43,001 nt of DNA from NCBI GenBank assembly GCA_045543215.1, contig JAZQMD010000149.1, positions 1-43,001 of the forward strand, written 5' to 3'. Both the position numbers and the translations under genes were made by a program. A model generated the notes under the pieces. It worked only from the letters and a program-made list of their open reading frames with translations, was not told the origin of the DNA and ran no database searches. Source of the DNA: Oscillospiraceae bacterium. Lineage in GTDB: Bacteria; Bacillota; Clostridia; Oscillospirales; Oscillospiraceae. Shown here one piece after another: positions 7,738-40,488 of the stretch. Numbering within the stretch: position 1 is the first letter of the stretch; the number at the start of each line of letters is the position of its first letter.

Positions 7738-7749
7738 GGAGCGGTTAGT

Positions 7750-9144: not shown

Positions 9145-9150
9145 GCAGAT

Positions 9151-19127: not shown

Positions 19128-21440
19128 TTATCTGGATACCAAGATACGTACTTTACCACCCTCATTGGGATTGCGGTCATAATAAGCAACAAATGTGTTG
19201 GAGGAGGCTAGAAAATCGTTGAGTGAGGCCACCCAGCTTCCGCTGCGGCTATTGTAGCACAGCAAATCTGAAGACAGAGGCAGGGTTAGGATACCTGCCT
19301 TGACGCTGTTGCTTTCCAGGTCAATGTTCTGGCGGGAAAAGCTGGTGGTAGGTATGAGTCCTATGGTGCGCACCAGGGTCTGCTTTGTTCCATCAGAACT
19401 GGAGGCAGAAACCCAACCTACAAATTGGCTACCGAAATCAGTAGATACACCGGAGGTGACTGTAATGGAGTTTTTGGGGTTAGAAAAGGTTATATTGTAG
19501 GATTGGCTAGATGGGTTGCCATTTTCGTCCTTTTCCTCCGAGAGCGAAGTACTGACTATGCCATACTGATATGCGGTTCCCGTAATATCATTCAAAACAA
19601 TTAGATCGACCTTGCCCGCATAATTGGTACGAGCGTAGGTAATATCATCGGCAGGAACGGAAAGGAAGGGTATATCAGCAAGGGCTACCTCTACCACAGG
19701 CCCCTTTCCAACCCGATCATAGATATGGACAGTGTTGGACAGAGGGGTGGAGCCTAAGGTCTTTCTTGATACATCAAGGGCACCGGGAAGGGATGAGGAG
19801 GTGAGACGAACCAGAGAAAGGTTTCCGCCCCTGCCGCTATAGGTTACTGATACCAGTTGGCCGTCTAGGTTACCCACATTGCTGCCGATATAAGTACCCT
19901 TAAGCTCAGGTAAGACGGAGTCCAGTAGTTTGACGGTGGCGGTGGAGCCGCTGATGGAGGCGATGCCTACGGCGTTGGCCCGACATTCAGAGGGGGAGAC
20001 AGCCCCAGCTACCATACCGTCTGAAGTGAAAAGCAAGGTCATGGCAGAGCCGACCTGGAAGTTGCGCAGGGTATCCCAGGCGGATTCCAGCACAGGAAAC
20101 TCAGCACCCAAAAGCTTAATTTTGGTAGGCGCAGTAAGGTTTGGAGTAGCCTCCTCGTAAACACCGGAAAGGCGCAGATCGGAAACCATCAGGCTGCGGG
20201 TAGTGGGGTCATAGGTGGCCACATCGTACTGACGGATATCGGAGGAAGTGGCCTGACTACCGTTTTTATAGATGGTGTATCCGGTATCTTTGCCCACCAG
20301 GGAAAGAAAGGGATTGCCAACATTGTTTCCAAAATTGATTACAGCACCGCCGGTGGAGGAGGTGGTATTTACATAAATGTAGTCAACCCCGCCAGCGGCG
20401 GTATAGTAGACCGTGAGGGAGACTCCCCTTCGGTCCAGGGTAACCCAGCTTTCCCCATAGGTCGATTTTTCATCATTACGCCAAACAGGAGTAGAGGCGG
20501 AAAGGGCAAGAAAGGTGCCGTTGTTCAGGGTCAAACCGGAGGCAGAGGCTCCATTGGAAATCACGGTGGAATTACTGGTGCCCTGGTTTGGCAGGAAGGT
20601 GAGAAACCGCCCTGCGGAGTTGTATACTGCAATTCCGCTTTTGCCCTGGAAGAAGGAGGCGGGATTATTCACCGCAGGGAGCACCGCGTCCTTACCAGAT
20701 ACCTGGACAGCACCGGAAGAGCCATCGGCAGTCTTGGCATTGCAGTTTAGCAATAGTGCTCCAGACACCACTGAGCCACGGGAGGCAGCATAAATATCTC
20801 CACTCTCCTTAGGATTGGCAAGTAGCATGTTGTAAAACAGCAAGGCGGCCTGACCTCGAGTGATGGCATCTCCACTGGTAAGGAAGGGAAGGCCCTTGGT
20901 CAATCCAATAGTCTGGGCGGTGGAGATGGCACCCTGGGGCCAGCTTACACTGGCCTCAGCAGTATAGCCCAGAACGCGTAAGAGGATGGTAATTGCCTCG
21001 CCGAAGGTAATGTTGCGCCCTGGACGGAAAGTACCATCCCCTATTCCCATGATGAGGCGGGCACCTGAGCTTTGCTCCACCACTTGGGCGGAGGCTAGGT
21101 TAATATACCCTCTGGCCCAATATGTGCCAGTCACGTCAGAAAAGACGGTACGGTTGGCTTGGGCGGCAACTTGGTCACCCAGACCCATGATGGTCACGGT
21201 TAGTTTACAGAATTCAGCTCGATTGAGATTGCCTTCGGGATTATAAGTACCGCCGGGCAGGCCGTCGATAACTCCCATCATGCGTAGGGCCTCCACTGAC
21301 TCGCCCAGGGTTGGATCAGTAATATCGGAGAAGGTGGATACCGTGCCGCTGGCGGAAGAGGCTGCGGCAGAGGGGACAACGATAAGGCTGGATAAGCAGG
21401 CAGCAGTCAAAATAGACGCTAAAATTGGTTTTATCTTCAT
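19128..21440 (-). CDS. Secreted SLH-domain cell-wall-anchored protein with a large uncharacterised beta-rich C-terminal region (cassette 1)
   Basis: 770 aa. Signal peptide MKIKPILASILTAACLSSLIVVPSAAA. Three SLH repeats (FSDITDP...NLNRAEFCKL; FSDVTGTYWARGYINLA...FRPGRNITFGEAITILLRVLG; ...ITRGQAALLFYNML). About 550 aa of Ser/Thr/Gly/Val-rich sequence follows. The GAGGAG SD overlaps the permease stop, and the intergenic gap is 13 nt. Confidence 0.85.
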   Translation of the reverse strand: MKIKPILASILTAACLSSLIVVPSAAASSASGTVSTFSDITDPTLGESVEALRMMGVIDGLPGGTYNPEGNLNRAEFCKLTVTIMGLGDQVAAQANRTVFSDVTGTYWARGYINLASAQVVEQSSGARLIMGIGDGTFRPGRNITFGEAITILLRVLGYTAEASVSWPQGAISTAQTIGLTKGLPFLTSGDAITRGQAALLFYNMLLANPKESGDIYAASRGSVVSGALLLNCNAKTADGSSGAVQVSGKDAVLPAVNNPASFFQGKSGIAVYNSAGRFLTFLPNQGTSNSTVISNGASASGLTLNNGTFLALSASTPVWRNDEKSTYGESWVTLDRRGVSLTVYYTAAGGVDYIYVNTTSSTGGAVINFGNNVGNPFLSLVGKDTGYTIYKNGSQATSSDIRQYDVATYDPTTRSLMVSDLRLSGVYEEATPNLTAPTKIKLLGAEFPVLESAWDTLRNFQVGSAMTLLFTSDGMVAGAVSPSECRANAVGIASISGSTATVKLLDSVLPELKGTYIGSNVGNLDGQLVSVTYSGRGGNLSLVRLTSSSLPGALDVSRKTLGSTPLSNTVHIYDRVGKGPVVEVALADIPFLSVPADDITYARTNYAGKVDLIVLNDITGTAYQYGIVSTSLSEEKDENGNPSSQSYNITFSNPKNSITVTSGVSTDFGSQFVGWVSASSSDGTKQTLVRTIGLIPTTSFSRQNIDLESNSVKAGILTLPLSSDLLCYNSRSGSWVASLNDFLASSNTFVAYYDRNPNEGGKVRILVSR

Positions 21441-21453
21441 ATTTATTCTCCTC

Positions 21454-22704
21454 TTAATCTGCCCTCAGGGCCTCCACAGGCTGCAGGCGGGAAGCTTTTG
21501 CGGCGGGGTATAGACCAAAAATGATGCCAAGGGCCACCGAGATAGCGAAGGCCCCTACGGTGATCTCAATACCGGGCAACATGATAACATTAAAGGACAT
21601 TTTGCCTACGATAAGGGTACCAAGACAGCCAACTATAATACCAAAAAGTCCACCGATACCACAAATCATGGCCGCCTCAATCAGGAATTGGACAATAATG
21701 CTCCTGCGTTCAGCGCCAATCGCTTTGCGAATGCCGATCTCGCGGGTGCGTTCAGTGACGGTAACCAGCATAATATTCATGATACCGATACCGCCAACCA
21801 GAAGGGAAATGGCCGCAATGCCGCCCAAAAACCGTTGCTGGAGGGCGTTTGCTTCATTTTGCTCCGCTTGAAAGACACTCTCGTTGAACACGTCTGAATA
21901 ACCGTAACCATTACTAATCAGGCCGCTGAGAAAACCTTTTATGAGAGTGGCAGCGTGCATGGCAGACCGGCTATCTTTCGCCTTCACAATATACTGCTCG
22001 ATAGGCTGGTTGTTGTTAAATATCCGATTAAAGGTATGGGGGATGACCACGATGCGGTCCATGCGGCTCATCTCCATCTGTTGCCAGTTGTCTCCCTCCT
22101 CATTGGGCTGGGTTACGCCAGAGCCTTTGGCTCCGTATACCCCTATAACCAGAAAGGGTAGTCCGTTGATGGTGATGGTCTTGCCAACCGGGTCTACTAA
22201 GTTGAACAGGGTGGAGGCGATGCCAGAACCAAGCACACATACCTGGTTAGACTTTTGCACGTCTAAGTAGCTCAGCTCCCGACCGTTTACTACCTTATAA
22301 TTGTTGCATAAGCCAAACTGGTCATTGCTTAAGTAGAGGGTGGGGCGGGTGTTCCAGTCCTCCTCAGCTCCTATGGATTGGACGCCGTATTTAATGATAG
22401 TGTTGCTTGATACCTGACCCATAGGGGTAACTCCGGTTACGTAGTCATCTAGTTGGAGACAGTAATCATATAGTTCTCCGGCCACGTCGATCCCGCCTTG
22501 CCAGGTGGATGCATGTACGGTGAGTTTATTGTTACCCATGCTATCATAATACTCTTGAAGGGCAAGATTCTGACCCTTGGCATAGGACACCAGGATAATG
22601 ACAGCGGCCAAACCAATGATGACACCCAACATGGTGAGTAAAGAGCGCCCTTTGTTGGATGAAATGGATTTTGCAGCCATCTTAAGAGCTTGGGTGATGT
22701 TCAT
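21454..22704 (-). CDS. MacB-type ABC transporter permease (MacB periplasmic-core domain + FtsX)
   Basis: 416 aa. N-terminal TM helix, an extracytoplasmic domain of about 250 aa, three C-terminal TM helices, and the conserved ends ERTREIGIRKAIGA and GLYPAAKASRLQPVEALRAD. Its start overlaps the ATPase stop by 4 nt. Confidence 0.9.
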   Translation of the reverse strand: MNITQALKMAAKSISSNKGRSLLTMLGVIIGLAAVIILVSYAKGQNLALQEYYDSMGNNKLTVHASTWQGGIDVAGELYDYCLQLDDYVTGVTPMGQVSSNTIIKYGVQSIGAEEDWNTRPTLYLSNDQFGLCNNYKVVNGRELSYLDVQKSNQVCVLGSGIASTLFNLVDPVGKTITINGLPFLVIGVYGAKGSGVTQPNEEGDNWQQMEMSRMDRIVVIPHTFNRIFNNNQPIEQYIVKAKDSRSAMHAATLIKGFLSGLISNGYGYSDVFNESVFQAEQNEANALQQRFLGGIAAISLLVGGIGIMNIMLVTVTERTREIGIRKAIGAERRSIIVQFLIEAAMICGIGGLFGIIVGCLGTLIVGKMSFNVIMLPGIEITVGAFAISVALGIIFGLYPAAKASRLQPVEALRAD

Positions 22705-23399
22705 AGTCCGACCTCCTCTCGGCTTCCGTCGGCTACAATGTGTCCATCGGAGATACGTACAATGCGTGAGGCAGTAGATGCAATACCGTTGTCGTGGGTA
22801 ATTAGAATAATGGTGCGGCCTTCTTCTTCATGGAGAGCGTGGAGTATCTCCAGCACATGTCGCCCGGTTTTGGAATCCAGAGCGCCGGTTGGTTCATCCG
22901 CCATAATAATGGGGGGGCGGGTAGCAATGGCCCGGGCGATGGCTACCCGCTGTTGCTGACCACCAGACATCTCAGAGGGCTTATGGTCGGCCCGGCCATC
23001 CATGCCAACTTTTTCAAGGGCCGCCATGATTAGCTCCTTCCGTTTCCCAATAGGGATGCCCTGATAAATCAGGGGAAGTTCTACATTTTCATAAGCGGAC
23101 AGGGCGGGAATGAGATTGTAGCCCTGAAAGATAAATCCGATCTCTTTGTTACGAATGTGGGCCAGTTCCCGGTCATTAAGCTCGGTGATATCAGTGCCGT
23201 CCAGGTGATAGTCTCCATGGGTTGGAATGTCCAGACAGCCCAGGATGTTCATCAAGGTAGATTTACCTGAACCAGAGGTACCGATAATAGCCACAAACTC
23301 TCCCCGGTCAATGGAAAGGGAGACTCCATCTAAGGCGCGCACTTCACTTTCCAGGCCCTCGTGATAGATTTTATATAGGTTTTGAATATCGATTAACAT
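22701..23399 (-). CDS. MacB/LolD-type ABC transporter ATP-binding protein
   Basis: Walker A GTSGSGKST, signature [13 protein letters not shown], Walker [14 protein letters not shown]-loop ITHD. Confidence 0.95.
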   Translation of the reverse strand: MLIDIQNLYKIYHEGLESEVRALDGVSLSIDRGEFVAIIGTSGSGKSTLMNILGCLDIPTHGDYHLDGTDITELNDRELAHIRNKEIGFIFQGYNLIPALSAYENVELPLIYQGIPIGKRKELIMAALEKVGMDGRADHKPSEMSGGQQQRVAIARAIATRPPIIMADEPTGALDSKTGRHVLEILHALHEEEGRTIILITHDNGIASTASRIVRISDGHIVADGSREEVGL

Positions 23400-23410
23400 A
23401 AGACCACTCC

Positions 23411-25120
23411 TTAATATGCGGTGGTCATTACATAGCTGTTAAAAACAACGTCGCCTTCGTTAAGACCAGAGGTAATCTCTACATTGTAACGGTCACTCAG
23501 GCCAGTTTCTACCGGGACAGGATAATAACCGTCTTTTTCAGTGGGATACTGGAGGGATGTGTCCCCTGGCGCAGATTCGGGCAGATCGGCATCCACGGTA
23601 TTTTCTGGGCGGCTGTCTGCCTCAAGAAAGACCACGGTGACTGGATTTCCATCTTTATCACTTATGGACTTAACACATTGAATGGGAATGGTAACACAGT
23701 TTTCCGATTCGCTGGTGACAAAGGAGTAGGTCAGCCACATGCCCTGCAGAAGAGTACCGTCTTGGTTATCGACAGTGAGGGTAACAGGATAATTGGTCAT
23801 ACCAGAGGAACTGGAACCACCACTCCCACCGGCGGTCATGTTGATATTAGTGACGGTACCCGTGTATGTGTTTTCGTTGTGATCAGTCAGATCAATGGTC
23901 ATGCCTGGCTTGACAAAGCTGATGTTGCGGTCATCTACCGTAATTTCTACGATCATGCTGGTTGTATTGGAAATGGTAATAACAGTGTCGTTGGCTTTGA
24001 CGCTCTGTCCCGGAGAAATAGTGCAGGACATAACAACCCCGTCAATTGGTGCTACAGCATTGAAGTTGGCAAGTGCCTTCTGGGCCTCACTCAGCTTGTC
24101 TTGGGCATCACTAATCTCTTTTTGTTTAGCCCGAATAAGGGACTCCTGCTCTTCCGAGCCAAGCGCCAGCAGGGTTTGCCCAGCAGTGACGTTGGCATAC
24201 TTAAGTAAATCTACCGATAGAACAGGTCCTCCTGCCTTTGTAGTAATCTCCCGTGTTTCGTAATACTCCAGCTTTCCGTTTTCATAGGGAAAGATGGATG
24301 AGCCGTCGGCAGCAATCATGGAGGCGGTGGCCTCCATATCGGCGGTGAGGGTGCCGGGATTTTTAAGGGCGACCACAACCTCGAAGAGGGTAGCCCCTTC
24401 TGGAACCACACGGCTAACCTTGTTAATGGTTTCCACTGTTCCGGTGTGAGTGCCCATAGTGGAGGGGATAGAGACCTCTACGCTCTGGCCTATGTAAATG
24501 TCATTTTCGTAGGCGTAACTGTAATAGAGGGGCAGCTTCAGAGTGAGGTCGTTGACTAAGGTAGCCACAGCAGCACCAGAAGCGGCGTTTTCACCCACCT
24601 GAAATTTTCCGACTTCAATCAGTTTTCCGGAGAAAGGGGCGGTAATCGTCAGATTATTAAGGGCTTTTTGAAGGTCGTTCATGTCTTTACGCAGGCCATT
24701 TAAAGATTCCTGGGCGGCGGTAACGGCATCCTGGGCCACGGTGGAGTTGATGGTGTATAGGGGCTGGCCAGCCGTGACCGTTTCACCTTCAGATACAAAG
24801 ACCTCCTGCACAGTGCCTCCGGCGGTAAGGGTAATTGCGGCGGTGTCTTTGGGTTTGGCATTGCCGTTGCCCTGTACGGTACTGCGGATGGTATCGACGG
24901 TGGCAGTGGAAGGGAGGATACTACCTTGAGTGTTGGGCTTTCGGAATACGAAATACCAGATGGAAAAAACCGCAGCGGCCAAGATGGCAATCGTGACTAC
25001 AATGCCAATGATTCGTTTAATTTGCCGTTTACTGCGTTTTTTCTTAACTGGCTTGCCGGGCATAGTGGGTGCGGCTGGCGCTTCTGCCACAGCTACGGCA
25101 CTATTTTGCTTTTCTGACAT
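23411..25120 (-). CDS. HlyD/membrane-fusion-protein family periplasmic adaptor, unusually long (cassette 1)
   Basis: 569 aa. Basic N-terminus plus one TM anchor (IIGIVVTIAILAAAVFSIWYFVF). Lipoyl/barrel-sandwich-like GETVTAGQPLYTI. Coiled-coil segments (AQESLNGLRKDMNDLQKALNNL; KEISDAQDKLSEAQKALANF). AGGAGG SD upstream. Confidence 0.85.
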   Translation of the reverse strand: MSEKQNSAVAVAEAPAAPTMPGKPVKKKRSKRQIKRIIGIVVTIAILAAAVFSIWYFVFRKPNTQGSILPSTATVDTIRSTVQGNGNAKPKDTAAITLTAGGTVQEVFVSEGETVTAGQPLYTINSTVAQDAVTAAQESLNGLRKDMNDLQKALNNLTITAPFSGKLIEVGKFQVGENAASGAAVATLVNDLTLKLPLYYSYAYENDIYIGQSVEVSIPSTMGTHTGTVETINKVSRVVPEGATLFEVVVALKNPGTLTADMEATASMIAADGSSIFPYENGKLEYYETREITTKAGGPVLSVDLLKYANVTAGQTLLALGSEEQESLIRAKQKEISDAQDKLSEAQKALANFNAVAPIDGVVMSCTISPGQSVKANDTVITISNTTSMIVEITVDDRNISFVKPGMTIDLTDHNENTYTGTVTNINMTAGGSGGSSSSGMTNYPVTLTVDNQDGTLLQGMWLTYSFVTSESENCVTIPIQCVKSISDKDGNPVTVVFLEADSRPENTVDADLPESAPGDTSLQYPTEKDGYYPVPVETGLSDRYNVEITSGLNEGDVVFNSYVMTTAY

Positions 25121-27849: not shown

Positions 27850-27872
27850 TTCATCCAAAAAAGGAGAACACT

Positions 27873-28973
27873 ATGAATAAAACAATGCGCAAACTGGCTG
27901 CTGTTGGGGTGGCTGTGGCCACCGCCGCCGCCCTTATGACACCAGCTTTGGGGACTGGATTAACCTCCGTTACGCTGGAGGTCCACAAGGGGATCAATCT
28001 GTATGTCAATTCTTCTCCCTATTTGTCCACCGATGTAAACGGTCAGGAAACAAATCCCTTTCTTTATAACGGAACCACCTATGTACCTTTGCGGGCTATC
28101 TCCGACATGTTGGGGACAAATCTGGAGTGGGACGATGTAAGAAAGCGGGTGAATATTGCCTCTTTATTTGATGCCCAGCCGATGAATAACACGGAAGGCC
28201 GGGCGGATACCGTGCTAACTGAAGCGGAGATCAGTGCGGTGCAGGGGGTGGAAATTTATGTGGATGGGGAACGATTTATTCCGCGGGATGCGGAGGGGGC
28301 GGAGGTAGCAGTTTACTTGGTAGATGGCACTACCTATGTGCCGATACGTGCGCTGTCCTCCCTGTTTCAGGTGGATATCTCTTATGACCGGGATAGCGCC
28401 CGGGTATATATTGGCATCCAACCTGGCTGGGGAGAGGAGACGGAGGGACAAACCCAGCTTTATCCTAATTTGAGTGGGGAAAGAAACGTTCAGCTTCAGC
28501 GGTATCGAGAGTATATCAAGCTTATGCAGCCGGTAGTGGAATTGATGTGGTCTAAGCAAACTGCTTACAAAGAACTAAAGCAGCTGGCAAATAGCTATGT
28601 AAATGCAGTGATGGCACTGATCGGGGAGGCCCAAGAGTCTGGAAATTCTGCTCTGGCAGGTAAGCTGGAGGCCCATTGGCAGACGTTGGATGGCTTATGC
28701 AAGCAGATAAACGGCATGGTTAGTAATATTGATTTAGCAGCTACCCGTTTTGCCGAAGCCTCGTCCTATATCCAGAGGGTCCCCTTTGATGTGAAGGAAT
28801 CCGAACTCAGTGAATTTACTCTATTTGAGAAATGTGGGCAGATTCTGGACAGGTTCTTTAAGGAACGGGAGAAAATAGTGGAGATATCCAGCGGGGAATC
28901 TATCTCCAGACTCCAACTGGGTGTTGAGGAAGCTTATAAAGCTGCTCTGGCGTTGGGGAGGGGGCCTTCCTGA
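27873..28973 (+). CDS. Secreted protein with two copper-amine-oxidase-N-terminal-like (stalk) repeats and a helical C-terminal region
   Basis: Start at MNKTMRKLAAVGVAVATAAALMTPALG (signal peptide) with AAGGAG SD. The NGTTYVPLRAISDMLGTNLEWD and DGTTYVPIRALSSLFQVDISYD repeats are typical of Cu_amine_oxidN1-like domains. Confidence 0.75.
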   Translation: MNKTMRKLAAVGVAVATAAALMTPALGTGLTSVTLEVHKGINLYVNSSPYLSTDVNGQETNPFLYNGTTYVPLRAISDMLGTNLEWDDVRKRVNIASLFDAQPMNNTEGRADTVLTEAEISAVQGVEIYVDGERFIPRDAEGAEVAVYLVDGTTYVPIRALSSLFQVDISYDRDSARVYIGIQPGWGEETEGQTQLYPNLSGERNVQLQRYREYIKLMQPVVELMWSKQTAYKELKQLANSYVNAVMALIGEAQESGNSALAGKLEAHWQTLDGLCKQINGMVSNIDLAATRFAEASSYIQRVPFDVKESELSEFTLFEKCGQILDRFFKEREKIVEISSGESISRLQLGVEEAYKAALALGRGPS

Positions 28974-29824: not shown

Positions 29825-29857
29825 TTGCCAGAGTGTGGTATTTTTGATATCATACCA
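29825..29857 (+). promoter_or_regulatory. Promoter of the MBL-fold gene with an overlapping inverted repeat
   Basis: -35 TTGCCA (29825-29830), 17-nt spacer, -10 TATCAT (29848-29853). The inverted repeat TGGTAT (29836-29841) / ATACCA (29852-29857) spans the -10. Confidence 0.45.
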
Positions 29858-29929
29858 TGCATAGATAGGCCCTTGAGAGGGCAGATGCTTTTGTTTGGTA
29901 TGAGCGCACCCGGCGTATGGAGGTTAGTT

Positions 29930-30640
29930 ATGAAGATCACCTATATCGGACACAGCGGATTTTTAGTAGAGCTGGAGCATACCCTCCTGCTCTTTGATTA
30001 CAGCGAGGGAGAGGTTCCTCCCCTGAATCTTGAAAAAGACTTATATGTATTTTCCAGTCATGCCCACTCGGACCATTTTAAATTTGAAAGCTTTAAACTG
30101 GGTCATCCAAACTCCCATTATGTGTGTTCGCAGGATATCCGAAAGGCTAGAGATGCTGGTAACTTTGCCAGTCATGGAGTGCCAGGATCGGTATTTGAGA
30201 AGATCCTGTTCCTCTGTCCTCATGAGAAGGTCTGCTTGGACGAGATTGTGGTGGAGACATTGGACTCTACCGATGAGGGGGTTGCGTTTCTGGTGGAGGC
30301 GGAAGGAAAGTCTATCCTTCATATGGGTGATTTGCACTGGTGGGTGTGGGCTGGTGAGCCGGAGGAGGACAACTGCCGCATTGAGGAAAAGTGGAACCGT
30401 GAGCTCAGCGGCTTGAGCGGACGGCATGTTGATATTCTCTTTGCGGTTCTTGATCCCAGGCAGGAGGGGGATTTTTGGAAGGGGCTGGATCAGTTGGCCA
30501 GAACGGTGGATGCGGATGCCATTTATCCCATGCACATGTGGGGGCGACCAGAGCTGGTGGATCATCTGCGGGAACTACCCTGCTCCCAGCCATATCGGGA
30601 TAAACTTCCTTCAGTAAATTTTTATCGAAAAAAGGCTTGA
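29930..30640 (+). CDS. MBL-fold metallo-hydrolase
   Basis: MKITYIGHSGFLVE start with GGAGG SD. SHAHSDHF metal-binding motif. The track ORF begins 105 nt upstream, within the promoter region. Confidence 0.8.
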   Translation: MKITYIGHSGFLVELEHTLLLFDYSEGEVPPLNLEKDLYVFSSHAHSDHFKFESFKLGHPNSHYVCSQDIRKARDAGNFASHGVPGSVFEKILFLCPHEKVCLDEIVVETLDSTDEGVAFLVEAEGKSILHMGDLHWWVWAGEPEEDNCRIEEKWNRELSGLSGRHVDILFAVLDPRQEGDFWKGLDQLARTVDADAIYPMHMWGRPELVDHLRELPCSQPYRDKLPSVNFYRKKA

Positions 30641-30680
30641 AACAGGCTCTGGGAAACTACTGTTTCCCGGAGCCTGTTTG
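30640..30680. terminator. Bidirectional terminator (MBL gene / SLH gene of cassette 2)
   Basis: AACAGGCTC-tGGGAAAC-tac-tGTTTCCCg-GAGCCTGTT extended stem, with T-rich flanks on both strands. Confidence 0.7.
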
Positions 30681-30701: not shown

Positions 30702-32537
30702 TTAAGTGGGTTTAGCCACGATTACCCGGATGCAGCCTCCCTGGGCTATGGGCTTATCATAGTATCCGGTGAGGGAATAGTCCCCGGTCACATATCCCAG
30801 TGAGGCAAAGAACCAGTCGCCGTCATAGATAAATACCTGTACCTCATCAGACAGCCTCCAGGCGGCGCCGCTTTTATCGTAGCCAATGCCTGCTGACAGG
30901 GAGGTAAAGGGAACCTTTCCAGTAAGGGATGCCAAAGAGCCGTCGGTGCGTAGAGCAAAGGGGCCAGGCTGAACGTAATAGAGTAGGTTCAATAAGTGGG
31001 CCTGGGACTGCCCACCAATGTTATAGGTATAGCGGGCAGAGACGCTAAGGGGGGAAGACAGATCTTGAATGGCGGTGAGGATACCATACTGATCTAGGTC
31101 CCCGGTCACATCGTTTAGGATTAAATGACTGATGCGACCAGCGGAGTCTGTGGCATAAAAGCGTACCATGTTGTCGGTAAGGTGGACCCCAGCCAGACGA
31201 GCAGGATAGACCCGCAGGGTTTCCGTGGGGCTGCGAACGTCTAAGATCTGGACCTCTCCAGCCAGCTCATAGTTGCCGATGGTCTGGGCCTGGTCGTCCA
31301 CCCTTCCGGAAATGGAAGCGGAAGAGACGTTGGTCAGTCTGACAGATCCGTCATCTGTGATTTTCACTTGCATCAGGCTGCCCAGGGTGGGAAGATAGTC
31401 CTGGGTTGGATAGGTATAGGAAAGGCCATCCGTGGCGGTGAGGGTAACCGTTTTGGAGGTATAGCTCTCTCCATCGGCATTGGAGAATGAGCCTGTTCCG
31501 GTAGCGGAAACTACACCGTAAAGTACACCGGCAGAGTCCAAGGGGGAGAGGACGGCGGCTACGCCTCCATCCTTACCCAGCAGCAGGGTAATCTGATCTC
31601 CAATCCTGTAGGTTCCAAAGCTGGAAAGGGCATGGGAGGCAGAGGCAGTCTCAATCGCGTAGGTTTTGCCAGCAACGGTTACGGAAGTGGGGCTGGAAGG
31701 AGAGGGGGAGGCGTTTTGATAGATACCGGTAATCTTCCTGGTATAGGCCCAAACAGTACTCATTGATTTGGAATAATAAATTACATCGTTTTCCTCAATC
31801 GCGGACAGAGAGGAGAGGAAACCGCTGCGGTAGACTGTCCTGGGGGTAAAATCCAACTGGGGGGCCAAATCCTGTCTGGCTACAATAGGCCCCTCCATAG
31901 CAGAGTGGATCAGATCGTTTACGTCAATCTCACCCGAGAGGGTAAGTGTGTGGCCTAAGGTGGTGAGATAAATGGACCCATCCTTGGCGGGGGTGGTAAG
32001 CATGTTATAGAATAAATACATGGAATCCCGGCGGGTGAGGGGTGTAGAGCTGTCGGTGGAGGCTACCCCTTTATCCAGACCCAGGGCACGGTATTTGGCC
32101 ATCCTGCCGGTTACACCATTAAAGTCGCTGTTTGGATAGCCTAGCAGTCGCAGGACAATGGTCACTCCCTCCAACAGGGTAATTTGGTTGCTGGGGCGGA
32201 AAGTACCGTCTAAATAACCGGTAATCAGCCCGGTGGAGACGGCTTTTTCCACATAAGGGGCAGCCCAGTGAGTATGGGGTACATCGGGATAAGGGGAGAC
32301 AGCGGTTTGCCCCCCTATGGAGGTTCCATAGGGAGAGGCGGCCACCGCCATTTTGACAAACTGGGCTCGATTGACGTGGCTGTCCAAGCTCAGGTTTCCT
32401 TTTTCGTCCCCCACCATGATGTCTAAGGCAGCCATGGTGGTGATGATCGGGGATAAATCAGCGTTGATGGCAGAAACCGAAAGGATGGGGGTGAGCAAGA
32501 GGGAGGAGAGGAGCAATGCGGTCAGTCTTCGCTTCAT
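30702..32537 (-). CDS. Secreted SLH-domain cell-wall-anchored protein, paralogue of 19128-21440 (cassette 2)
   Basis: 611 aa. Signal peptide MKRRLTALLLSSLLLTPILSVSA. SLH repeats (VNRAQFVKMAVAAS; YPDVPHTHWAAPYVEKAVSTGLITGYLDGTFRPSNQITLLEGVTIVLRLLG; LTRRDSMYLFYNML). The C-terminal region shares motifs with the cassette-1 protein. AGGAGG SD lies 9 nt upstream, and the gap after the permease stop is 26 nt. Confidence 0.85.
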   Translation of the reverse strand: MKRRLTALLLSSLLLTPILSVSAINADLSPIITTMAALDIMVGDEKGNLSLDSHVNRAQFVKMAVAASPYGTSIGGQTAVSPYPDVPHTHWAAPYVEKAVSTGLITGYLDGTFRPSNQITLLEGVTIVLRLLGYPNSDFNGVTGRMAKYRALGLDKGVASTDSSTPLTRRDSMYLFYNMLTTPAKDGSIYLTTLGHTLTLSGEIDVNDLIHSAMEGPIVARQDLAPQLDFTPRTVYRSGFLSSLSAIEENDVIYYSKSMSTVWAYTRKITGIYQNASPSPSSPTSVTVAGKTYAIETASASHALSSFGTYRIGDQITLLLGKDGGVAAVLSPLDSAGVLYGVVSATGTGSFSNADGESYTSKTVTLTATDGLSYTYPTQDYLPTLGSLMQVKITDDGSVRLTNVSSASISGRVDDQAQTIGNYELAGEVQILDVRSPTETLRVYPARLAGVHLTDNMVRFYATDSAGRISHLILNDVTGDLDQYGILTAIQDLSSPLSVSARYTYNIGGQSQAHLLNLLYYVQPGPFALRTDGSLASLTGKVPFTSLSAGIGYDKSGAAWRLSDEVQVFIYDGDWFFASLGYVTGDYSLTGYYDKPIAQGGCIRVIVAKPT

Positions 32538-32563
32538 GGTAGAGGCCTCCTAGAGAGTTTGAA

Positions 32564-33754
32564 TCAATCATAACGTAAAGCATCAATGGGATTGAGGGCA
32601 GCAGCCTTATTGGCGGGCAGGTAGCCGAACAAAATACCCACTCCGGCAGATACACCGAAGGAGACGCAGATAGCCATCACCGAAGGGACTGCGGCCACCC
32701 CTACCATGGAGCCTGCCAAACCGGCCAGAGCAATTCCAAGAAGGATGCCAATGATTCCGCCCACAGCGGAGGTAGTCGCCGCCTCGATGATGAACTGGCT
32801 GCGAATGTCCCGGCGCTTGGCCCCCAGGGATTTGCGAATACCAATCTCCCGGGTGCGCTCGGTAACCGAGACCAGCATGATATTCATAATGCCAATTCCA
32901 CCGACCAAGAGGGAAATGGCTGCGATGGCTACCAGTACGGTCATGACCGTGTCGGTGATGGTACCCATGAGGCTCATCATCTCGCTCATAGAGATAACCA
33001 TGTAGTTGTTATTGTCATCCCCTTCCTCCAGGCTGTAGAGTCGGTCCATAGCGGTCTCAATGACCGCCTTGGCCTGGGTGGACACTTCATCACCGGCGGC
33101 GGAAAAGTTATACTGGGTGACTGCGGTGCTGCCGTTAATCCGACCAGCATTGGTGTAGGGAATGTAAATGGTGTTGTCATCGCCGTAGGAAGTGTTGTCG
33201 GCACTTTCGGTAAGCACCCCGATGACCTGGTAAGTTACGCCGTTGATGTGGAGGGACTGACCGTAACCTGCGCCGTTAAAATGCTCTTCGTCTATATAGG
33301 AGCCAATGACGCACACATTCTGCATCCTTGCTACATCAATGTATTGAAGGAAACGGCCCTGGGACACCTCGAGGGATTTAATGGCAATATAGTCCTCTCC
33401 CACGCCGGTGACGGTGGAGGTAAAAACCTCATCTTTAGTCTTGAGGCGTGGCTCATTGAGAGAGACTACCGGGGAGACGGCCCGTAAGTATTGGGGATAT
33501 TCTTCAGCTAACTCGTACATATCCTCTGGTTTGCTCTGGACTGTTCCGCCACGTCCTATGTCATAGACTTGAAGGAGATTGGAACCCATTTTATCAAACT
33601 CCTCGTTAATCAGGGCATTCATACCGTCTCCCAAGGAGATGATGATAATGACGGCAGCCACACCGATGATGATACCCAACATGGTAAGCAAGGCACGCAT
33701 CTTGCTGGTGGACAGGGCCTTAAGAGCCAGGCGAAAGGACTGGGTAAAATTCAT
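32564..33754 (-). CDS. MacB-type ABC transporter permease (cassette 2)
   Basis: 396 aa. Same architecture as 21454-22704. ERTREIGIRKSLGA and GYLPANKAAALNPIDALRYD. 4-nt overlap with the ATPase gene. Confidence 0.9.
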   Translation of the reverse strand: MNFTQSFRLALKALSTSKMRALLTMLGIIIGVAAVIIIISLGDGMNALINEEFDKMGSNLLQVYDIGRGGTVQSKPEDMYELAEEYPQYLRAVSPVVSLNEPRLKTKDEVFTSTVTGVGEDYIAIKSLEVSQGRFLQYIDVARMQNVCVIGSYIDEEHFNGAGYGQSLHINGVTYQVIGVLTESADNTSYGDDNTIYIPYTNAGRINGSTAVTQYNFSAAGDEVSTQAKAVIETAMDRLYSLEEGDDNNNYMVISMSEMMSLMGTITDTVMTVLVAIAAISLLVGGIGIMNIMLVSVTERTREIGIRKSLGAKRRDIRSQFIIEAATTSAVGGIIGILLGIALAGLAGSMVGVAAVPSVMAICVSFGVSAGVGILFGYLPANKAAALNPIDALRYD

Positions 33755-34482
33755 AAGCCGCCCCCCTCATCGGCGGAGACTACCGCCCTTGGATCGTGGG
33801 CGGGGCCGTCGTAGATGATTCTGCCGTCCTGAAGGCGGATAATGCGGTGGGCTTTGATGGCAATAGCGTTGTCATGGGTAATAAGGACAATGGTATTGCC
33901 TGCATCATTGAGCTTTTGAAGAAAATCGATAACTTCCCGGCCGGTGCGGGAGTCCAGCGCGCCGGTGGGCTCATCGGCCAAGATAACTGAAGGCTCCCCA
34001 GCCAGGGCCCGGGCGATGGACACCCGCTGCTGTTGGCCCCCGGAAAGCTGGGAGGGACGGTTTTTCATTTTATCGGACAGTCCCACCAGGGCCAAAGCCT
34101 GGGAGGAGCGTTGGTGGCGCTCGGCAGCGGAGAAACCGGCATAGAGTAGGGGAAGTTCCACATTTTCCTGTACATTAAGTGTGGGAATAAGATTATACTG
34201 CTGGAAAATGAAGCCCAGCATCCTGTTACGAATCTCAGCCTGCTGGTCATCATCCATGCCGGACACATCCTGTCCGTCAAGATAGTAGCTGCCTGAGGTA
34301 GGTACATCCAGGCAACCGATGATGTTCATGGCAGTAGACTTGCCTGAGCCGGACTGGCCCACAATGGCTACAAACTCTCCCCTGTTGATACTCAGGGAGA
34401 TTCCATCCAGGGCATGGATATGGTCATCCCCCATCTGATAGATCTTGTAAAGGTTCCGGAACTCGATGAGATGCCCATTCAT
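33751..34482 (-). CDS. MacB/LolD-type ABC transporter ATP-binding protein (cassette 2)
   Basis: Walker [10 protein letters not shown], signature [13 protein letters not shown], Walker [13 protein letters not shown]-loop ITHD. Confidence 0.95.
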
Positions 34483-36119
34483 GGTATGTCACCCATGTTT
34501 CCGGGACTGGCGGTCATAGCCATGCCCATCAGTTCATAGATAGAACTGGCCGTGTTGACAATAGCCACCGTATCGCCCTCATCCAGGCCGGAGCGCACTT
34601 CAATGTAGTCCTCGTCGTTGCGGCCCAGTTCCACCGTGGTTTCAACCAGCCGGTCAGGAAGGAGATTGCCTTGATCGTCAAAAGCATCCACCCCAGCCAG
34701 CAGGACGGTGTTCCCACGCTGCACCGCACCTACAGGAATTCGCAATACATTCTCAGCCCGCTCCACCAGGATATGGGCGGAAACATTCATGCCGGGAAGA
34801 AGATCCTCACCATTGTCGATGACCACGGTGACAGGATAGTTGGTTACCCCTCCCATGGTGGTGCCGTTGATGTTAATGGTTTCCACCCAGCCGTGAAAGG
34901 TCTGCCCCTCGGCTGCGTCGGCAGTAATTTCCACCTTCTGGCCGGGTCTCACCTGGGAAATATATAGTTCATCTACATTCATGTCAAAGGTGAGGGTGGA
35001 CATATCGAAAATGACTGCCAAATAACCTGCCCCAGCTTCCAGATTGTCTCCCGCCTGAAAGTTTTTTTCAATGACCGTGCCGGAAATGGGAGAGGTAATG
35101 GTATAGTCCTCCAGTCGATCCTGGGCATTTTTCAGGGCAAGTTGGGCAGTTTCCAGGGAGATACGGGCGCTCTCCACCTGGGTAGAGATGCTATCATTGT
35201 TATAAGAGCCCAAGGTCTGGTTCTTGGAAACCCAGTCACCTTCGGATACATACAGCTCAGACAGGGTGCCGTTGTTGCGGGCATGGACAGTGGATTGGGC
35301 AGAGTAGGAGAAGGTTCCTACAGCCGAACAGCTGGCCTCTCCCACCGTAGCTGTACCTGTCATGCCCTCGGTAAGAGCACCCGGATTAGCCACCTGAATC
35401 GTTACTTTGCGAGTAAGGGCACCTCCGGCTCCCACTTCATTGATGGGAGAAATTTGGGTGATTGTACCTGTCAAAGGCTCCAAGGCATCCCCGGCCAAGA
35501 CCACGGCGGACTGGCCGATCTGAAAGCCTTGAGCTTGGGAGCTGTGGAAGGGCAGTTCCAGGGTCATGGTGTTCCGGTCCAGGATGTCAATTATGGGGGA
35601 GCCGGAGGTCACATAGTCCCCTTCATCCACATAGAGTTTGGTAATTATCCCGGTGTCGGTGGATTTTAGAGCGCTGTCTCCCTGCGTGGCGATGAGAGAG
35701 TCGTAACTAAGCTGGGCCTGCTCTACAGACAGACGGGCCTGGGCGATGGAGTTCTCCAGATCGGAGGAATCGATCTGGTAGAGCACATCCCCTTTCTGTA
35801 CCGTGTCTCCGACCTGAAAAGGGGCATCCAGAATCTCCCCGGTGACCAAAGCAGTCACTCGGTAGGAGTTGTTTGGTTCCACCACAGCTGAGCCGGAGAC
35901 TTGGACAGTGATCTCTCCTATATCGGCTGTAGCGGGGATGTAAAGAGAGGAGGCCAGTTGCTTGCCTGCAGAGCTGATAGAATGCAGGAGCAAAGCCCCG
36001 GCCAGACCAATGATAATCAGGATGATGGCAAGACGGATAGGCCATTTGTGTTTCTTCTTCGGGACGGGGAGATTAGGGGCTGGAGCTCCCGTAGCTCCTT
36101 GTGTGGTGACGCTTTGCAT
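34479..36119 (-). CDS. HlyD/membrane-fusion-protein family periplasmic adaptor, unusually long (cassette 2)
   Basis: 546 aa. Basic N-terminus plus TM anchor (IRLAIILIIIGLAGALLLHSI). GDTVQKGDVLYQID lipoyl-like motif. Coiled-coil segments (IAQARLSVEQAQLSYDSL; ARISLETAQLALKNAQDRL). AAGGAG SD upstream. 4-nt overlap with the ATPase gene. Confidence 0.85.
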   Translation of the reverse strand: MQSVTTQGATGAPAPNLPVPKKKHKWPIRLAIILIIIGLAGALLLHSISSAGKQLASSLYIPATADIGEITVQVSGSAVVEPNNSYRVTALVTGEILDAPFQVGDTVQKGDVLYQIDSSDLENSIAQARLSVEQAQLSYDSLIATQGDSALKSTDTGIITKLYVDEGDYVTSGSPIIDILDRNTMTLELPFHSSQAQGFQIGQSAVVLAGDALEPLTGTITQISPINEVGAGGALTRKVTIQVANPGALTEGMTGTATVGEASCSAVGTFSYSAQSTVHARNNGTLSELYVSEGDWVSKNQTLGSYNNDSISTQVESARISLETAQLALKNAQDRLEDYTITSPISGTVIEKNFQAGDNLEAGAGYLAVIFDMSTLTFDMNVDELYISQVRPGQKVEITADAAEGQTFHGWVETININGTTMGGVTNYPVTVVIDNGEDLLPGMNVSAHILVERAENVLRIPVGAVQRGNTVLLAGVDAFDDQGNLLPDRLVETTVELGRNDEDYIEVRSGLDEGDTVAIVNTASSIYELMGMAMTASPGNMGDIP

Positions 36120-36285
36120 ACGGATGCTCCTTGCTAAATAGTTTGGAGAGGTAATCAGTTCAAATCATTAATATGCTTATTAAAAATAATCTCCCTCTTA
36201 AATAAAGTCAAGGACGGCATTATATTGTTTACGGAAACTTTAAACTTTTTCCAAAAGGCGGTATAAAGATAGTCCCTTGGTGCCC

Positions 36286-38070: not shown

Positions 38071-40488
38071 ATGCAAATAAGGACAAAGCAGCTTACACTG
38101 GAAGAGGTCACCCCGGGAAGAAGTGTAGTCATCTGTGCCGTTGGTAACCATCGCGGGGCATTGAAGAGGCGGCTGGTGGACATGGGACTGACACCAGGAA
38201 CTGTGGTGACCGTTCGTAAGGCAGCTCCCTTTGGAGATCCTATTGAGGTAAATCTAAGGGGGTATGAACTCTCTTTACGTAAGGAGGATGCCGCCTATAT
38301 CACAGTTTGTGCGCCTGAAGAGGCCCCTGCTCATGAGCAGCGAGAGCGCAGGGGAATGCTCCAGCGGATACCTGAAGAGGAAACCTTAAAGCGTATGGCT
38401 GCAGCTTACGAGCCCGGCGGTTTCTCCGGTTGCGGGAGCGGCTGTGTGGGGACGATGAAGCTGGCCCTGGTGGGCAACCCAAATTGCGGAAAGACGACTT
38501 TGTTTAACGCCCTGACCGGTTCCAACCAGTATGTGGGAAACTGGCCTGGTGTAACGGTGGAGAAGAAGGAGGGAATGGCCCAATTGGACGGCGAAAGGGC
38601 CACCATTGTGGATTTGCCGGGCATCTACTCACTCTCCCCTTATTCCATAGAAGAGGTGGTGGCGCGCAACTTTGTGGTGGGGGAGCAGCCGCACGCTATT
38701 ATCAATATTGTAGATGCGTCTAATATTGAGCGCAACCTTTATTTGACCGTCCAGTTGCTGGAATTGGAACGGCCTATGGTCATTGCCCTCAATTTCATGG
38801 ACGAGGTGACTAAGCGGGGGGATCACCTGGATGTGGAGAGGCTGTCACGGGCCTTGAATGTGCCTGTGGTTCCCATTACCGCCCGTACTGGGGAAAATAT
38901 TGATATATTGCTTAAAACAGCTTATAGACAGGGGGGTATGGGGTATACCATCCAACCCGAAAACCTGTACGATGATTTTACCCATCAGATCTGTTATGAG
39001 GTAGAGGAGGTCATCCGTGACAGGGCACGTGCCGCCGTAATCCCCTCCCACTGGGCTTCCATCAAGCTCATTGAGGGGGATAATTTGCTGGAGGAAGCTT
39101 TAGAGCTGGAGGCAGAGGATAAGAGAAAGGTGGCCTCTATCATCAAGCGTTATGAGGAGGCTTATCCCCTTGGAGATCGGGAGACGTTAATGGCCGATGC
39201 CCGTTACCGTTTTATTCAAAAGGTGGTCAAGCTGGGTATACAAAGGGGAAGTCCCATGGAGAGGTCTTCTCTGTCTGATAAGATTGATTCTATTGTCACG
39301 GACAAGTATTTAGCAGTACCAATATTTCTGCTTGTAATGCTCTTTATGTTTATCCTTACCTTTGGCCCTGTAGGTTCCTTTCTGTCTGACGGAGTGGACT
39401 TTCTGATCAACCATTACTTTGCCCAGAAGGTAGGCCTTGCCCTGTCTACCGCCGGGGTGGCTCTTTGGGTGGAGCATCTGGTGGTAGATGGGATCATTGC
39501 TGGGGTAGGGGGAGTAATCAGCTTCTTACCCCAGATCGCACTGTTGTTCTTTTTTCTTTCTTTATTGGAGGATTCAGGGTACATGGCCCGGGCAGCTTTC
39601 ATTATGGATCGGCTGCTGCGGAAATTTGGGTTATCAGGCAAGGCTTTTATCCCCATGCTGATGGGATTTGGTTGTACTGTGCCCGCTATTATGGGTGCCA
39701 GGACGATGGAAAATGAGAAGGATAGGCGCATGACCATCATGCTGGTTCCCTTTATGTCATGTTCCGCCCGGCTACCGGTGTACGGTCTGATTTCCGCTGC
39801 CTTTTTCCCACAGTATGGGGGACTGGTAGTCTTTTCATTATATGTATTGGGTATGGTATGTGCGGTTTTGTCCGGGTTGATATGGAAAAGGACTTTATTT
39901 CAGGGGGAACCTGCTGCCTTCGTTTTGGAACTGCCTCCCTACCGCTTGCCAACTGCTCATAATTGCCTAATGCATGTGTGGGAGCGGGTACGGGGATTTT
40001 TGGTGAAAGCGGGGACACTCATTCTGGTCATGAGTGTGGGGCTATGGTTTCTCCAGTCTTTTGGTCTATCAGGGGGCATTTGCATGGTTGATTCTCCTGA
40101 GGACTCTATTTTAGGGATGGTAGGATCCTTCTTGGCACCGATGTTCGGCCCTCTTGGGTTTGGTACCTGGCGGGCCGCTGTGGCCATCCTCACTGGTTTT
40201 ATTGCTAAGGAGTCGGTAGTCTCTTCTCTGGCTTTGCTCTATGGTTTCTCTACTCTGGATGCCGGTGGAACAGTGGCTGCAGCGCTGTCAGGTGCCTTTG
40301 CCACTCCTGTGGCAGCCTATGCTTTTTTGGTGTTTGTTTTGCTCTATGTTCCCTGTATCGCTGCCGTTTCTACTTTATATCGAGAGATGAACAGCATGAA
40401 ATGGACGCTGTACTCTGTGCTTTGGCAGCTACTAGTAGCCTGGTTGGTGTCTTTCTCAGTGTATCAGATTGGGAGCCTGCTGTTTTAG
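38071..40488 (+). CDS. feoB: Ferrous iron transporter, fused FeoA-FeoB
   Basis: The N-terminal ~80 aa form a FeoA-like SH3 domain (LTPGTVVTVRKAAPFGDPIEVNLRGYELSLRKEDAAYI). A ~45-aa linker follows, then the FeoB G-domain (LALVGNPNCGKTTLFNALTG, DLPGIYSL) and a polytopic membrane domain. It starts 11 nt after the fhs stop. Confidence 0.92.
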   Translation: MQIRTKQLTLEEVTPGRSVVICAVGNHRGALKRRLVDMGLTPGTVVTVRKAAPFGDPIEVNLRGYELSLRKEDAAYITVCAPEEAPAHEQRERRGMLQRIPEEETLKRMAAAYEPGGFSGCGSGCVGTMKLALVGNPNCGKTTLFNALTGSNQYVGNWPGVTVEKKEGMAQLDGERATIVDLPGIYSLSPYSIEEVVARNFVVGEQPHAIINIVDASNIERNLYLTVQLLELERPMVIALNFMDEVTKRGDHLDVERLSRALNVPVVPITARTGENIDILLKTAYRQGGMGYTIQPENLYDDFTHQICYEVEEVIRDRARAAVIPSHWASIKLIEGDNLLEEALELEAEDKRKVASIIKRYEEAYPLGDRETLMADARYRFIQKVVKLGIQRGSPMERSSLSDKIDSIVTDKYLAVPIFLLVMLFMFILTFGPVGSFLSDGVDFLINHYFAQKVGLALSTAGVALWVEHLVVDGIIAGVGGVISFLPQIALLFFFLSLLEDSGYMARAAFIMDRLLRKFGLSGKAFIPMLMGFGCTVPAIMGARTMENEKDRRMTIMLVPFMSCSARLPVYGLISAAFFPQYGGLVVFSLYVLGMVCAVLSGLIWKRTLFQGEPAAFVLELPPYRLPTAHNCLMHVWERVRGFLVKAGTLILVMSVGLWFLQSFGLSGGICMVDSPEDSILGMVGSFLAPMFGPLGFGTWRAAVAILTGFIAKESVVSSLALLYGFSTLDAGGTVAAALSGAFATPVAAYAFLVFVLLYVPCIAAVSTLYREMNSMKWTLYSVLWQLLVAWLVSFSVYQIGSLLF

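Follow-up and report, generated by a model that had tools for sequence, protein, structure and literature searches.

The window considered here is the whole of a 43,001-nucleotide (nt) stretch of an Oscillospiraceae genome (contig JAZQMD010000149.1), and our subject is a four-gene cassette on its minus strand at 30702-36119, hereinafter cassette 2. Its genes code, in order, for an adaptor of the membrane fusion protein (MFP) type, an ATP-binding cassette (ABC) ATPase, a permease and a secreted protein with S-layer homology (SLH) repeats; a second such set, cassette 1, is found in the same window. We present evidence which suggests that the SLH gene descended together with the pump genes from an ancient duplication of the entire cassette, and propose that its product probably acts as a wall-anchored component of a MacB-type export machine. 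The genes and signals of cassette 2 are given below (aa, amino acids; ORF, open reading frame).

34479..36119, minus strand: adaptor (MFP) gene, 546 aa (ORF list and Pfam)
33751..34482, minus strand: MacB-type ABC ATPase gene, 243 aa (ORF list and Pfam)
32564..33754, minus strand: MacB/FtsX-type permease gene, 396 aa (ORF list and Pfam)
30702..32537, minus strand: SLH protein gene, 611 aa (ORF list and Pfam)
32546..32551, minus strand: AGGAGG Shine-Dalgarno sequence of the SLH gene, within the 26-nt gap after the permease stop codon (direct reading)
30629..30679, minus strand: terminator hairpin, 17 of 18 base pairs, with a T-run, common to the convergent gene 29825-30640 (direct reading)
36183..36211, minus strand: promoter-like TTGACT-17-TATTTT, located in the 206 bp between the cassette and the divergent fhs gene (consensus scan, 9 of 12 matches)

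An earlier, sequence-only reading of this DNA had described four genes of these lengths on one strand, and the ORF coordinates agree with it exactly. The junctions also read as it had them: the adaptor and ATPase genes and the ATPase and permease genes each overlap by 4 nt, and the permease and SLH genes are separated by 26 nt, with the AGGAGG site 8 nt ahead of the ATG. The terminator that it placed at 30640-30680 is recovered by direct reading as a hairpin with a T-run, the stem region (30641-30679) being located between the SLH stop codon and the end of the convergent gene at 30640; a simple consensus terminator scan does not list this hairpin because the T-run begins 7 nt past the stem. 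At the opposite end, promoter-like sites in the intergenic region shared with fhs are no more numerous than in the shuffled expectation, and the site at 36183-36211 is accordingly weak evidence.

Two paralogous cassettes in one window

The sequence-only reading further held that the gene order recurs about 10 kb away. Cassette 1 indeed displays the same four Pfam families in the same order and on the same strand at that distance.

19128..25120, minus strand: cassette 1 as a whole (ORF list and Pfam)
23411-25120, minus strand: adaptor gene, 569 aa
22701-23399, minus strand: ATPase gene, 232 aa
21454-22704, minus strand: permease gene, 416 aa
19128-21440, minus strand: SLH protein gene, 770 aa

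The two sets are clearly diverged, as had been judged by eye. Pairwise alignment gives 26% identity over 544 columns for the adaptors, 58% for the ATPases and 36% for the permeases, and the SLH proteins share 31% identity in their SLH part. Kinship of the SLH proteins beyond the SLH repeats, which had been set as a test of the idea, is likewise borne out: the non-SLH parts align at 23% identity over 398 columns with an E-value of 1e-20. Identities of only 23-58% exclude a recent duplication. The view that the cassettes form an old paralogous pair is supported because each has its own orthologues in other genomes, which we term type 1 (cassette-1-like) and type 2 (cassette-2-like).

The two types occur together in three genomes, namely that of the window and those represented by the homologue loci L053 (convergent arrangement) and L060 (direct tandem); homologue loci are numbered with the prefix L. 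This co-occurrence suggests that the types originated by tandem duplication followed by functional divergence. In L060 (Clostridiales bacterium UBA1446; L060:1-9468), a type-2 cassette is followed directly by a type-1 cassette on one strand, which is likely to be the ancestral arrangement. The type-1 SLH gene of this locus is distributed over two overlapping ORFs (7257-8243 and 7873-9468), and is thus either frameshifted or affected by a sequencing error.

Conservation and shared history of the four genes

The SLH protein of cassette 2 has many homologues at 45-65% identity, which bear no annotation beyond 'S-layer homology domain-containing protein' or 'hypothetical' (e.g., BACCAP_01674 of Pseudoflavonifractor capillosus). 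Its residues 200-611 alone recover 957 clusters at 50% identity with E-values of at most 1e-3, and 329 clusters at E-values of at most 1e-30. A scan of one genome per species, conducted with an alignment of the SLH-protein C-terminus only, yielded 80 loci, and a further 18 came from metagenomes scanned with a cassette-1-type alignment. The 80 loci come mostly from Oscillospiraceae, including Flavonifractor, Pseudoflavonifractor, Lawsonibacter, Intestinimonas, Flintibacter, Muriventricola, Oscillibacter and Faecalibacterium, with a few from Lachnospiraceae and one from Sedimentibacter. Among the cultured strains, Flavonifractor plautii ATCC 29863 (L020) and Pseudoflavonifractor capillosus ATCC 29799 (L015) carry type-2 cassettes.

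The full adaptor-ATPase-permease-SLH order is seen in about 70 of these 80 species loci, and contig ends cut most of the others. The permease and SLH genes are separated by a median of 15 nt over 78 cassettes, and by 50 nt or less in 58 of them. When sampled from the side of the pump, by a search that returned only adaptor matches of at least 48% identity, the SLH gene is found downstream of all three adaptor homologues situated on long contigs. The 18 metagenome loci (L087-L104) contain type-1 orthologues, which keep the four-gene order wherever the contig allows, and each of their components best matches its cassette-1 counterpart.

It could be argued that the SLH gene merely codes for an unrelated surface protein that shares a transcript with the pump, its second copy reflecting coincidence or a recent duplication. 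In line with such a view, the SLH-family gene stands without a pump at the two true exceptions among the 80 loci (L059 and L065), and two Lachnospiraceae loci (L064:6374-11210 and L071:72-5682) have the permuted order SLH-adaptor-ATPase-permease. The partnership itself is kept in these permuted loci, and Oscillospiraceae, Lachnospiraceae and Sedimentibacter all display the pairing. The orphan copy in L065 (4442-8095) has a phage-type integrase directly upstream, with an AbiEi-like gene and a second SLH protein nearby, and the presence of the integrase suggests rearrangement. The stand-alone copy in L059 (5422-8266) adjoins a Peptidase_C39-like protein, and another SLH protein of 969 aa is encoded nearby.

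The distribution of types speaks more strongly against this view. Other genomes contribute 78 complete cassettes. In 67 of these every gene is type 2 and in 10 every gene is type 1, while the one remaining is a near-tie between the types in the ATPase only; no mixed combination of SLH and pump types occurs among them. The same story is told by four trees, one each for the adaptor, ATPase and permease and one for the C-terminal 385 residues of the SLH protein, a part without SLH repeats. The bipartition of type 1 and type 2 receives 100% support in all four by the Shimodaira-Hasegawa-like approximate likelihood-ratio test (SH-aLRT). A nested set of 14 members, comprising the ten type-1 cassettes and those of L067, L069, L074 and L078, is recovered in all four with 92-96%. 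The congruence that the sequence-only reading had called for is therefore present in two nested splits. Type 1 is represented by few cassettes, and three of its contigs are nearly identical to one another. L067, L069, L074 and L078 constitute a third deep lineage that groups with type 1 in every tree, and they are characterized by longer adaptors (600-779 aa) and longer SLH proteins (747-914 aa) with extra spacer units.

Patristic distances for pairs of components are correlated with Spearman coefficients of 0.90-0.97 when all cassettes are included and 0.81-0.95 when only type 2 is considered, and in 200 permutations of the labels the observed correlation is never reached. The adaptor-SLH value of 0.97 equals that for the adaptor and permease. 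These congruent trees, together with the unmixed cassette types, support the conclusion that the whole cassette was duplicated once, long ago, and that the SLH gene co-diverged with the pump. Along with the divergence of the two cassettes in the window, which precludes a recent duplication, they leave the notion of a passenger gene largely refuted, and we accord it a very slim chance. The earlier proposition that the SLH gene belongs to the system hence stands at the level of inheritance, as co-divergence, but not at the biochemical level.

Certain further genes accompany the cassette in a single sub-clade of Flavonifractor, Pseudoflavonifractor and Intestinimonas, where a TetR-family regulator lies 17-130 nt upstream of the type-2 cassette, and a divergent gene for a membrane-anchored Peptidase_M23 protein is situated beyond it (L001:2687-4362, L003:1708-4336, L105:3312-4987, L106:3375-4970 and L107:3154-4961). 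One or both are found upstream of about 26 of 68 type-2 cassettes, all in this sub-clade, and tblastn with four queries detects neither by the type-1 cassettes or by either cassette of the window, although a divergent TetR protein may escape such a search. In view of this restricted distribution, we rejected both as additional core components. Judging from gene context, the upstream TetR regulator fits an inducible efflux role. We similarly rejected the existence of SLH-less variants with other anchors: the short family matches (351-572 aa) begin inside the SLH region or the C-terminal module and represent truncated gene calls. In L106 the permease is called as two genes (L106:7397-8616; a 260-aa MacB_PCD protein and a 143-aa FtsX protein) in an otherwise intact cassette, possibly a pseudogene or an assembly error.

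Anatomy of the pump and the SLH protein

The ATPase matches the Pfam ABC_tran family (2e-35) and aligns to residues 4-235 of Escherichia coli MacB (NCBIfam NF007826, 2.5e-85), with LolD, DarD, FtsE and DevA as the NCBIfam matches that come next. The permease contains MacB_PCD (residues 22-234, 4.7e-39) and FtsX (residues 276-389, 6.7e-22) domains by Pfam, covers residues 253-645 of E. coli MacB in its NCBIfam alignment, and has the MacB-type plan of a large extracytoplasmic domain located between transmembrane (TM) helices 1 and 2 and a C-terminal FtsX bundle of three TM helices. Together the two proteins cover the full length of E. coli MacB. Their scores of 287 and 223 bits are below the MacB equivalog cutoff of 966 bits, and the nucleotide-binding domain (NBD) and permease are encoded by separate genes. 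By these profile matches, they belong to a member of the MacB family rather than to a MacB orthologue.

The adaptor shows Pfam matches to HlyD_D23 and HlyD_3, in two stretches each, and to Biotin_lipoyl, and scores 189 bits with TIGR01730 (RND_mfp; cutoff 94.9); precomputed Pfam assignments on its homologues include BSH_YknX and Beta-barrel_YknX. Residues ~60-265 and ~266-460 are an internal duplication (26% identity, E-value 3e-8). Its AlphaFold (AF2) model, with a predicted confidence (pLDDT) of 83.5, is laid out as follows.

Residues 26-57: TM helix (AF2 model)
Unit 1: lipoyl-1, short hairpin 119-147, beta-barrel-1 184-259 (AF2 model)
Unit 2: lipoyl-2, short hairpin 309-339, beta-barrel-2 366-462 (AF2 model)
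Residues 471-521: membrane-proximal domain (AF2 model)

Thus, the lipoyl (barrel-sandwich), alpha-hairpin, beta-barrel and membrane-proximal domains of the membrane fusion protein family are all present, but in place of a single unit with a hairpin of helical-barrel length, each chain has two lipoyl-hairpin-barrel units with hairpins of ~30 residues. Foldseek finds MacA of MacAB-TolC as the best match (E-value 4e-18), followed by AcrA, MexA and Spr0693, with MacA, AcrA and MexA in the range of 1e-16 to 1e-18. All the PDB matches are single-unit adaptors of ~340 aa and hence no tandem adaptor structure has been solved.

The fourth protein has an AF2 pLDDT of 83.8 overall, and below 50 for residues 1-25. 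Its predicted modules are listed with their coordinates in the window.

32460..32537, minus strand: Sec-type signal peptide, residues 1-26 (ending in SVSAINA, followed by D), from a basic N-terminus, hydrophobic core and AxA-like site
31899..32453, minus strand: SLH anchor with three SLH repeats, residues ~29-213 (Pfam SLH and Foldseek)
31545..31928, minus strand: all-beta spacer unit D1, residues ~203-331 (phmmer domain table and AF2 strands)
30705..31544, minus strand: constant C-terminal head, residues 332-611 (invariant columns and AF2)

The putative signal-peptide cleavage site is read from sequence features. Given the Sec signal, the protein would cross the membrane without needing the pump; no TM helix follows the signal peptide. 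The anchor scores 55 bits with Pfam SLH (cutoff 20.8), and resembles the crystal structures of the SpaA and Sap SLH domains with Foldseek TM-scores of 0.64-0.77 over 160-172 columns (E-value 2e-5). The repeat motif positions read NRAQ, TLLE and TRRD. At the TRAE position, the arginine of repeat 1 (R57) is invariant and that of repeat 3 (R169) nearly so, and both are kept in HMMER alignments to Sap and SlpA, while repeat 2 has a leucine. The middle SLH motif of SpaA is likewise degenerate. Binding to pyruvylated secondary cell-wall polymer would require both such arginines and the pyruvyl-transferase CsaB, for which no gene is present within the 43,001-nt window. Sap of Bacillus anthracis and SpaA of Paenibacillus alvei share this three-repeat fold; however, they are self-assembling S-layer proteins with strong promoters of their own, as opposed to a partner encoded at a short distance within a pump operon, and no S-layer assembly domain found in the PDB is related to the C-terminal module of the cassette-2 protein.

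Spacer D1 is present in one copy in the 611-aa protein and in 2-5 tandem segments in relatives of 750-1306 aa (phmmer). The head (~280 aa) is all-beta, is predicted as a string of small beta-barrels with a pLDDT of ~85, and carries the conserved motifs LILNDVTGD..QYG and YYDK...GGRIRV. It is constant across relatives, so that the family displays a design of anchor, variable spacer and conserved head. Neither Pfam nor NCBIfam has a model that matches the head. A profile search of the PDB returns SLH chains only, Foldseek with the full model reaches significant E-values for SLH domains alone, and no hydrolase or coiled-coil regulator domain is apparent in the SLH protein by Pfam, NCBIfam or the AF2 model. 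An OB-like fold, as hinted for small barrels in the model by Foldseek matches to the MalK C-terminus, LEF-3, S12 and cold-shock domains, was rejected as an assignment for the head (E-values of 4e-3 or higher; root-mean-square deviation, rmsd, of 15-20 Å). The head and spacer modules would define new, unnamed domain families.

Both cassettes are embedded among chromosomal housekeeping genes, namely arg genes, pheST, asnA, icd, fhs, feoAB and cobB. Elsewhere in the window, a FeoA-FeoB fusion is encoded in one 805-aa ORF (38071-40488, plus strand), 11 nt 3' of the formate-tetrahydrofolate ligase gene. A 375-aa protein with a Cu_amine_oxidN1 domain (27846-28973, plus strand), whose gene overlaps by 4 nt the end of an isocitrate/isopropylmalate-dehydrogenase-family gene, is probably a secreted wall-associated protein of Clostridia, and a 434-aa ORF (696-2000, minus strand) has no Pfam match.

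A proposed wall-side partner for a MacB-type pump

MacB-type transporters act by mechanotransmission, expelling substrates from the membrane's outer face via an adaptor assembly (PMC8277102, PMC5985334, PMC5768738), and MacAB-like pumps of Gram-positive bacteria protect Firmicutes against peptides and antibiotics (PMC5768738, PMC8277102). Cassette 2 may be compared with three such systems. The Spr0693-0694-0695 system of Streptococcus pneumoniae (5XU0/5XU1, PMC5768738) resembles it in the single-membrane host, the separate ATPase, the permease with four TM helices and an extracytoplasmic domain, and the membrane-anchored adaptor, the adaptor folds being matched by Foldseek (5xu0_B, E-value 1e-10, target-normalized TM-score 0.80). 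However, Spr0693 is a single-unit adaptor of ~400 aa, with long hairpins that form a 56-Å helical barrel in an assembly of 154 Å (PMC5768738), in contrast to the fused tandem with hairpins of ~30 residues. This adaptor tube of ~154 Å is thought to reach the peptidoglycan (PMC5768738, PMC8277102), and the system has a proposed role in resistance to antibiotics and antimicrobial peptides (PMC5768738). The pneumococcal operon has three genes and lacks a wall-anchored partner, whereas cassette 2 has the fourth, SLH gene.

YknWXYZ of Bacillus subtilis and B. amyloliquefaciens, an SDP-resistance pump (PMC4887032, PMC8277102), is a four-component MacB-type system of Firmicutes like cassette 2. The YknX adaptor, YknY ATPase and YknZ permease parallel its parts, though YknX is single-unit. 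The respective fourth components are entirely different, YknW being a small membrane protein with four TM helices and the cassette-2 protein a 611-aa secreted SLH wall protein; no YknW-like gene is present in the four-gene cassette. MacAB-TolC of E. coli and Aggregatibacter (5NIK, 4DK0, 9QGY) provides the best structural match for the adaptor and follows a similar logic, with a pump, an adaptor and a further component anchored in the outer layer of the envelope. E. coli MacB is a fusion of NBD and permease, which cassette 2 splits as do YknYZ and Spr0694-0695, and TolC is an alpha/beta-barrel trimer of the outer membrane, unlike the all-beta fourth protein with its SLH anchor in an envelope devoid of an outer membrane. 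Pfam detects no OEP/TolC-family gene in cassette 2 or the flanking genes. The Foldseek matches also include recent structures (PDB 9qgy/9tg4, 2025-2026) of the lipoprotein YbjP bound to MacAB-TolC and AcrABZ-TolC. These document accessory envelope partners of tripartite pumps in E. coli and offer a useful comparator. The novelties of cassette 2 relative to the known ABC/adaptor core are thus the fused tandem adaptor and the secreted SLH-anchored fourth component; full-text literature searches found no paper linking MacB-type or HlyD/FtsX operons to SLH proteins.

We posit that cassette 2 is an ancient paralogous operon for a MacB-type (type VII ABC) export machine whose fourth component is a dedicated wall-anchored protein; the machine would function in efflux with the adaptor docking on the SLH protein, and we assign this a rough probability of 0.55. 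In such a machine, the dimer of permease and ATPase would push its substrate, a toxic amphiphile or an antimicrobial peptide, off the membrane's outer face by ATP-driven mechanotransmission and into a chamber formed by three fused-dimer adaptors, the equivalent of the usual hexamer. As the adaptor hairpins are too short for a long tube of the MacA or Spr0693 type, the SLH-protein head might cap or extend this chamber, with the SLH domain holding the protein in the wall by binding pyruvylated secondary cell-wall polymer. The protein would then be a docking or exit factor, either conducting the substrate across the wall or tethering the pump to it. The two paralogues are presumably meant for different substrates or conditions. 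We consider docking the likeliest reading because the short hairpins coincide with a wall-anchored protein that co-diverges with the pump.

Alternatively, the SLH protein could be a wall-resident binder that takes over a lipid-linked or amphiphilic product from the pump, in the manner of LolA and LolCDE, or captures a toxic peptide for it. The spacer and head design would suit a tethered binder, small OB-like beta-barrels are a common ligand-binding fold, MacB relatives such as LolCDE act with soluble acceptors (PMC5768738), and co-inheritance would be explained as well as by docking. Nevertheless, neither Pfam nor NCBIfam detects a ligand-binding family, and the matches to OB-like folds are statistically weak, with an rmsd above 15 Å. 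The present data do not distinguish this hand-off from docking; we deem it rather unlikely.

A further alternative is that no transport takes place, and ATP-driven movement relayed via the adaptor switches the SLH protein in the way FtsEX acts with PcsB, CwlO and EnvC. The permease is an FtsX/MacB superfamily member with weak matches to FtsX models, including FtsX_Gpos (E-values 4e-6 to 2e-4, far under the cutoffs), the FtsEX-PcsB pair sets a precedent (PMC5768738), and one sub-clade has the divergent M23 peptidase gene upstream. However, the permease has a full MacB_PCD domain, and it is MacB, not FtsX, with which it aligns over its whole length. Moreover, FtsEX combines a small FtsX extracellular domain and a hydrolase or coiled-coil partner with no adaptor, whereas a complete adaptor is conserved in the cassettes and their SLH protein has no recognizable domain of either kind. 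As the M23 gene is also absent from the window, the type-1 cassettes and most type-2 cassettes, and the TetR regulator points to efflux, we hold such a mechanotransducer to be improbable.

Returning to the docking proposal, several considerations weigh against it. Co-divergence is a signature of shared inheritance and constraint, not of physical interaction between the adaptor and the SLH protein. The loci were collected mostly via the SLH gene, which introduces an ascertainment bias, and the trees come from a quick IQ-TREE search under LG+C20+F+G4 with SH-aLRT support and without bootstraps. Adaptor and SLH-protein lengths are weakly correlated (rho 0.43), and this was not used as evidence for their matching because phylogeny and over-extended ORF starts confound the comparison. 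The head displays no channel-like or TolC-like fold in the model, which renders a 'conduit' speculative. Finally, no public sequencing run contains the stretch, and the putative co-transcription of cassette 2 is deduced from the short gaps and their conservation.

More tentatively, and with the odds against it, the proteins with the SLH-spacer-head design might constitute a hitherto unrecognised class of 'wall factors', the single-membrane counterpart of the outer-membrane factor, in which the adaptor trimer would dock on the head, the SLH domain would pin the complex to the secondary wall polymer, and the spacer count would match the thickness of the wall. If true, the MacB-type pumps of Clostridia would be genuine trans-envelope machines, which would explain why bacteria lacking an outer membrane keep adaptors.

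The question of why Gram-positive bacteria retain membrane-fusion adaptors, and what these connect to, is a long-standing one, and neither of the two studied systems, YknWXYZ and Spr0693-5, presents a partner on the wall side. In the present cassettes, a conserved wall-anchored protein has diverged in step with the pump, as closely as the pump subunits have with one another. Two ancient paralogous lineages have both kept this partner, and the four genes share one history. These observations suggest that single-membrane bacteria provide MacB-type pumps with a dedicated wall partner, a question that can be put to a direct test in cultured commensals of the gut, for instance Flavonifractor and Pseudoflavonifractor. 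Oscillospiraceae of the human and animal gut, including Faecalibacterium, carry the family in abundance, and it may bear on their tolerance to bile, host defence peptides or bacteriocins.

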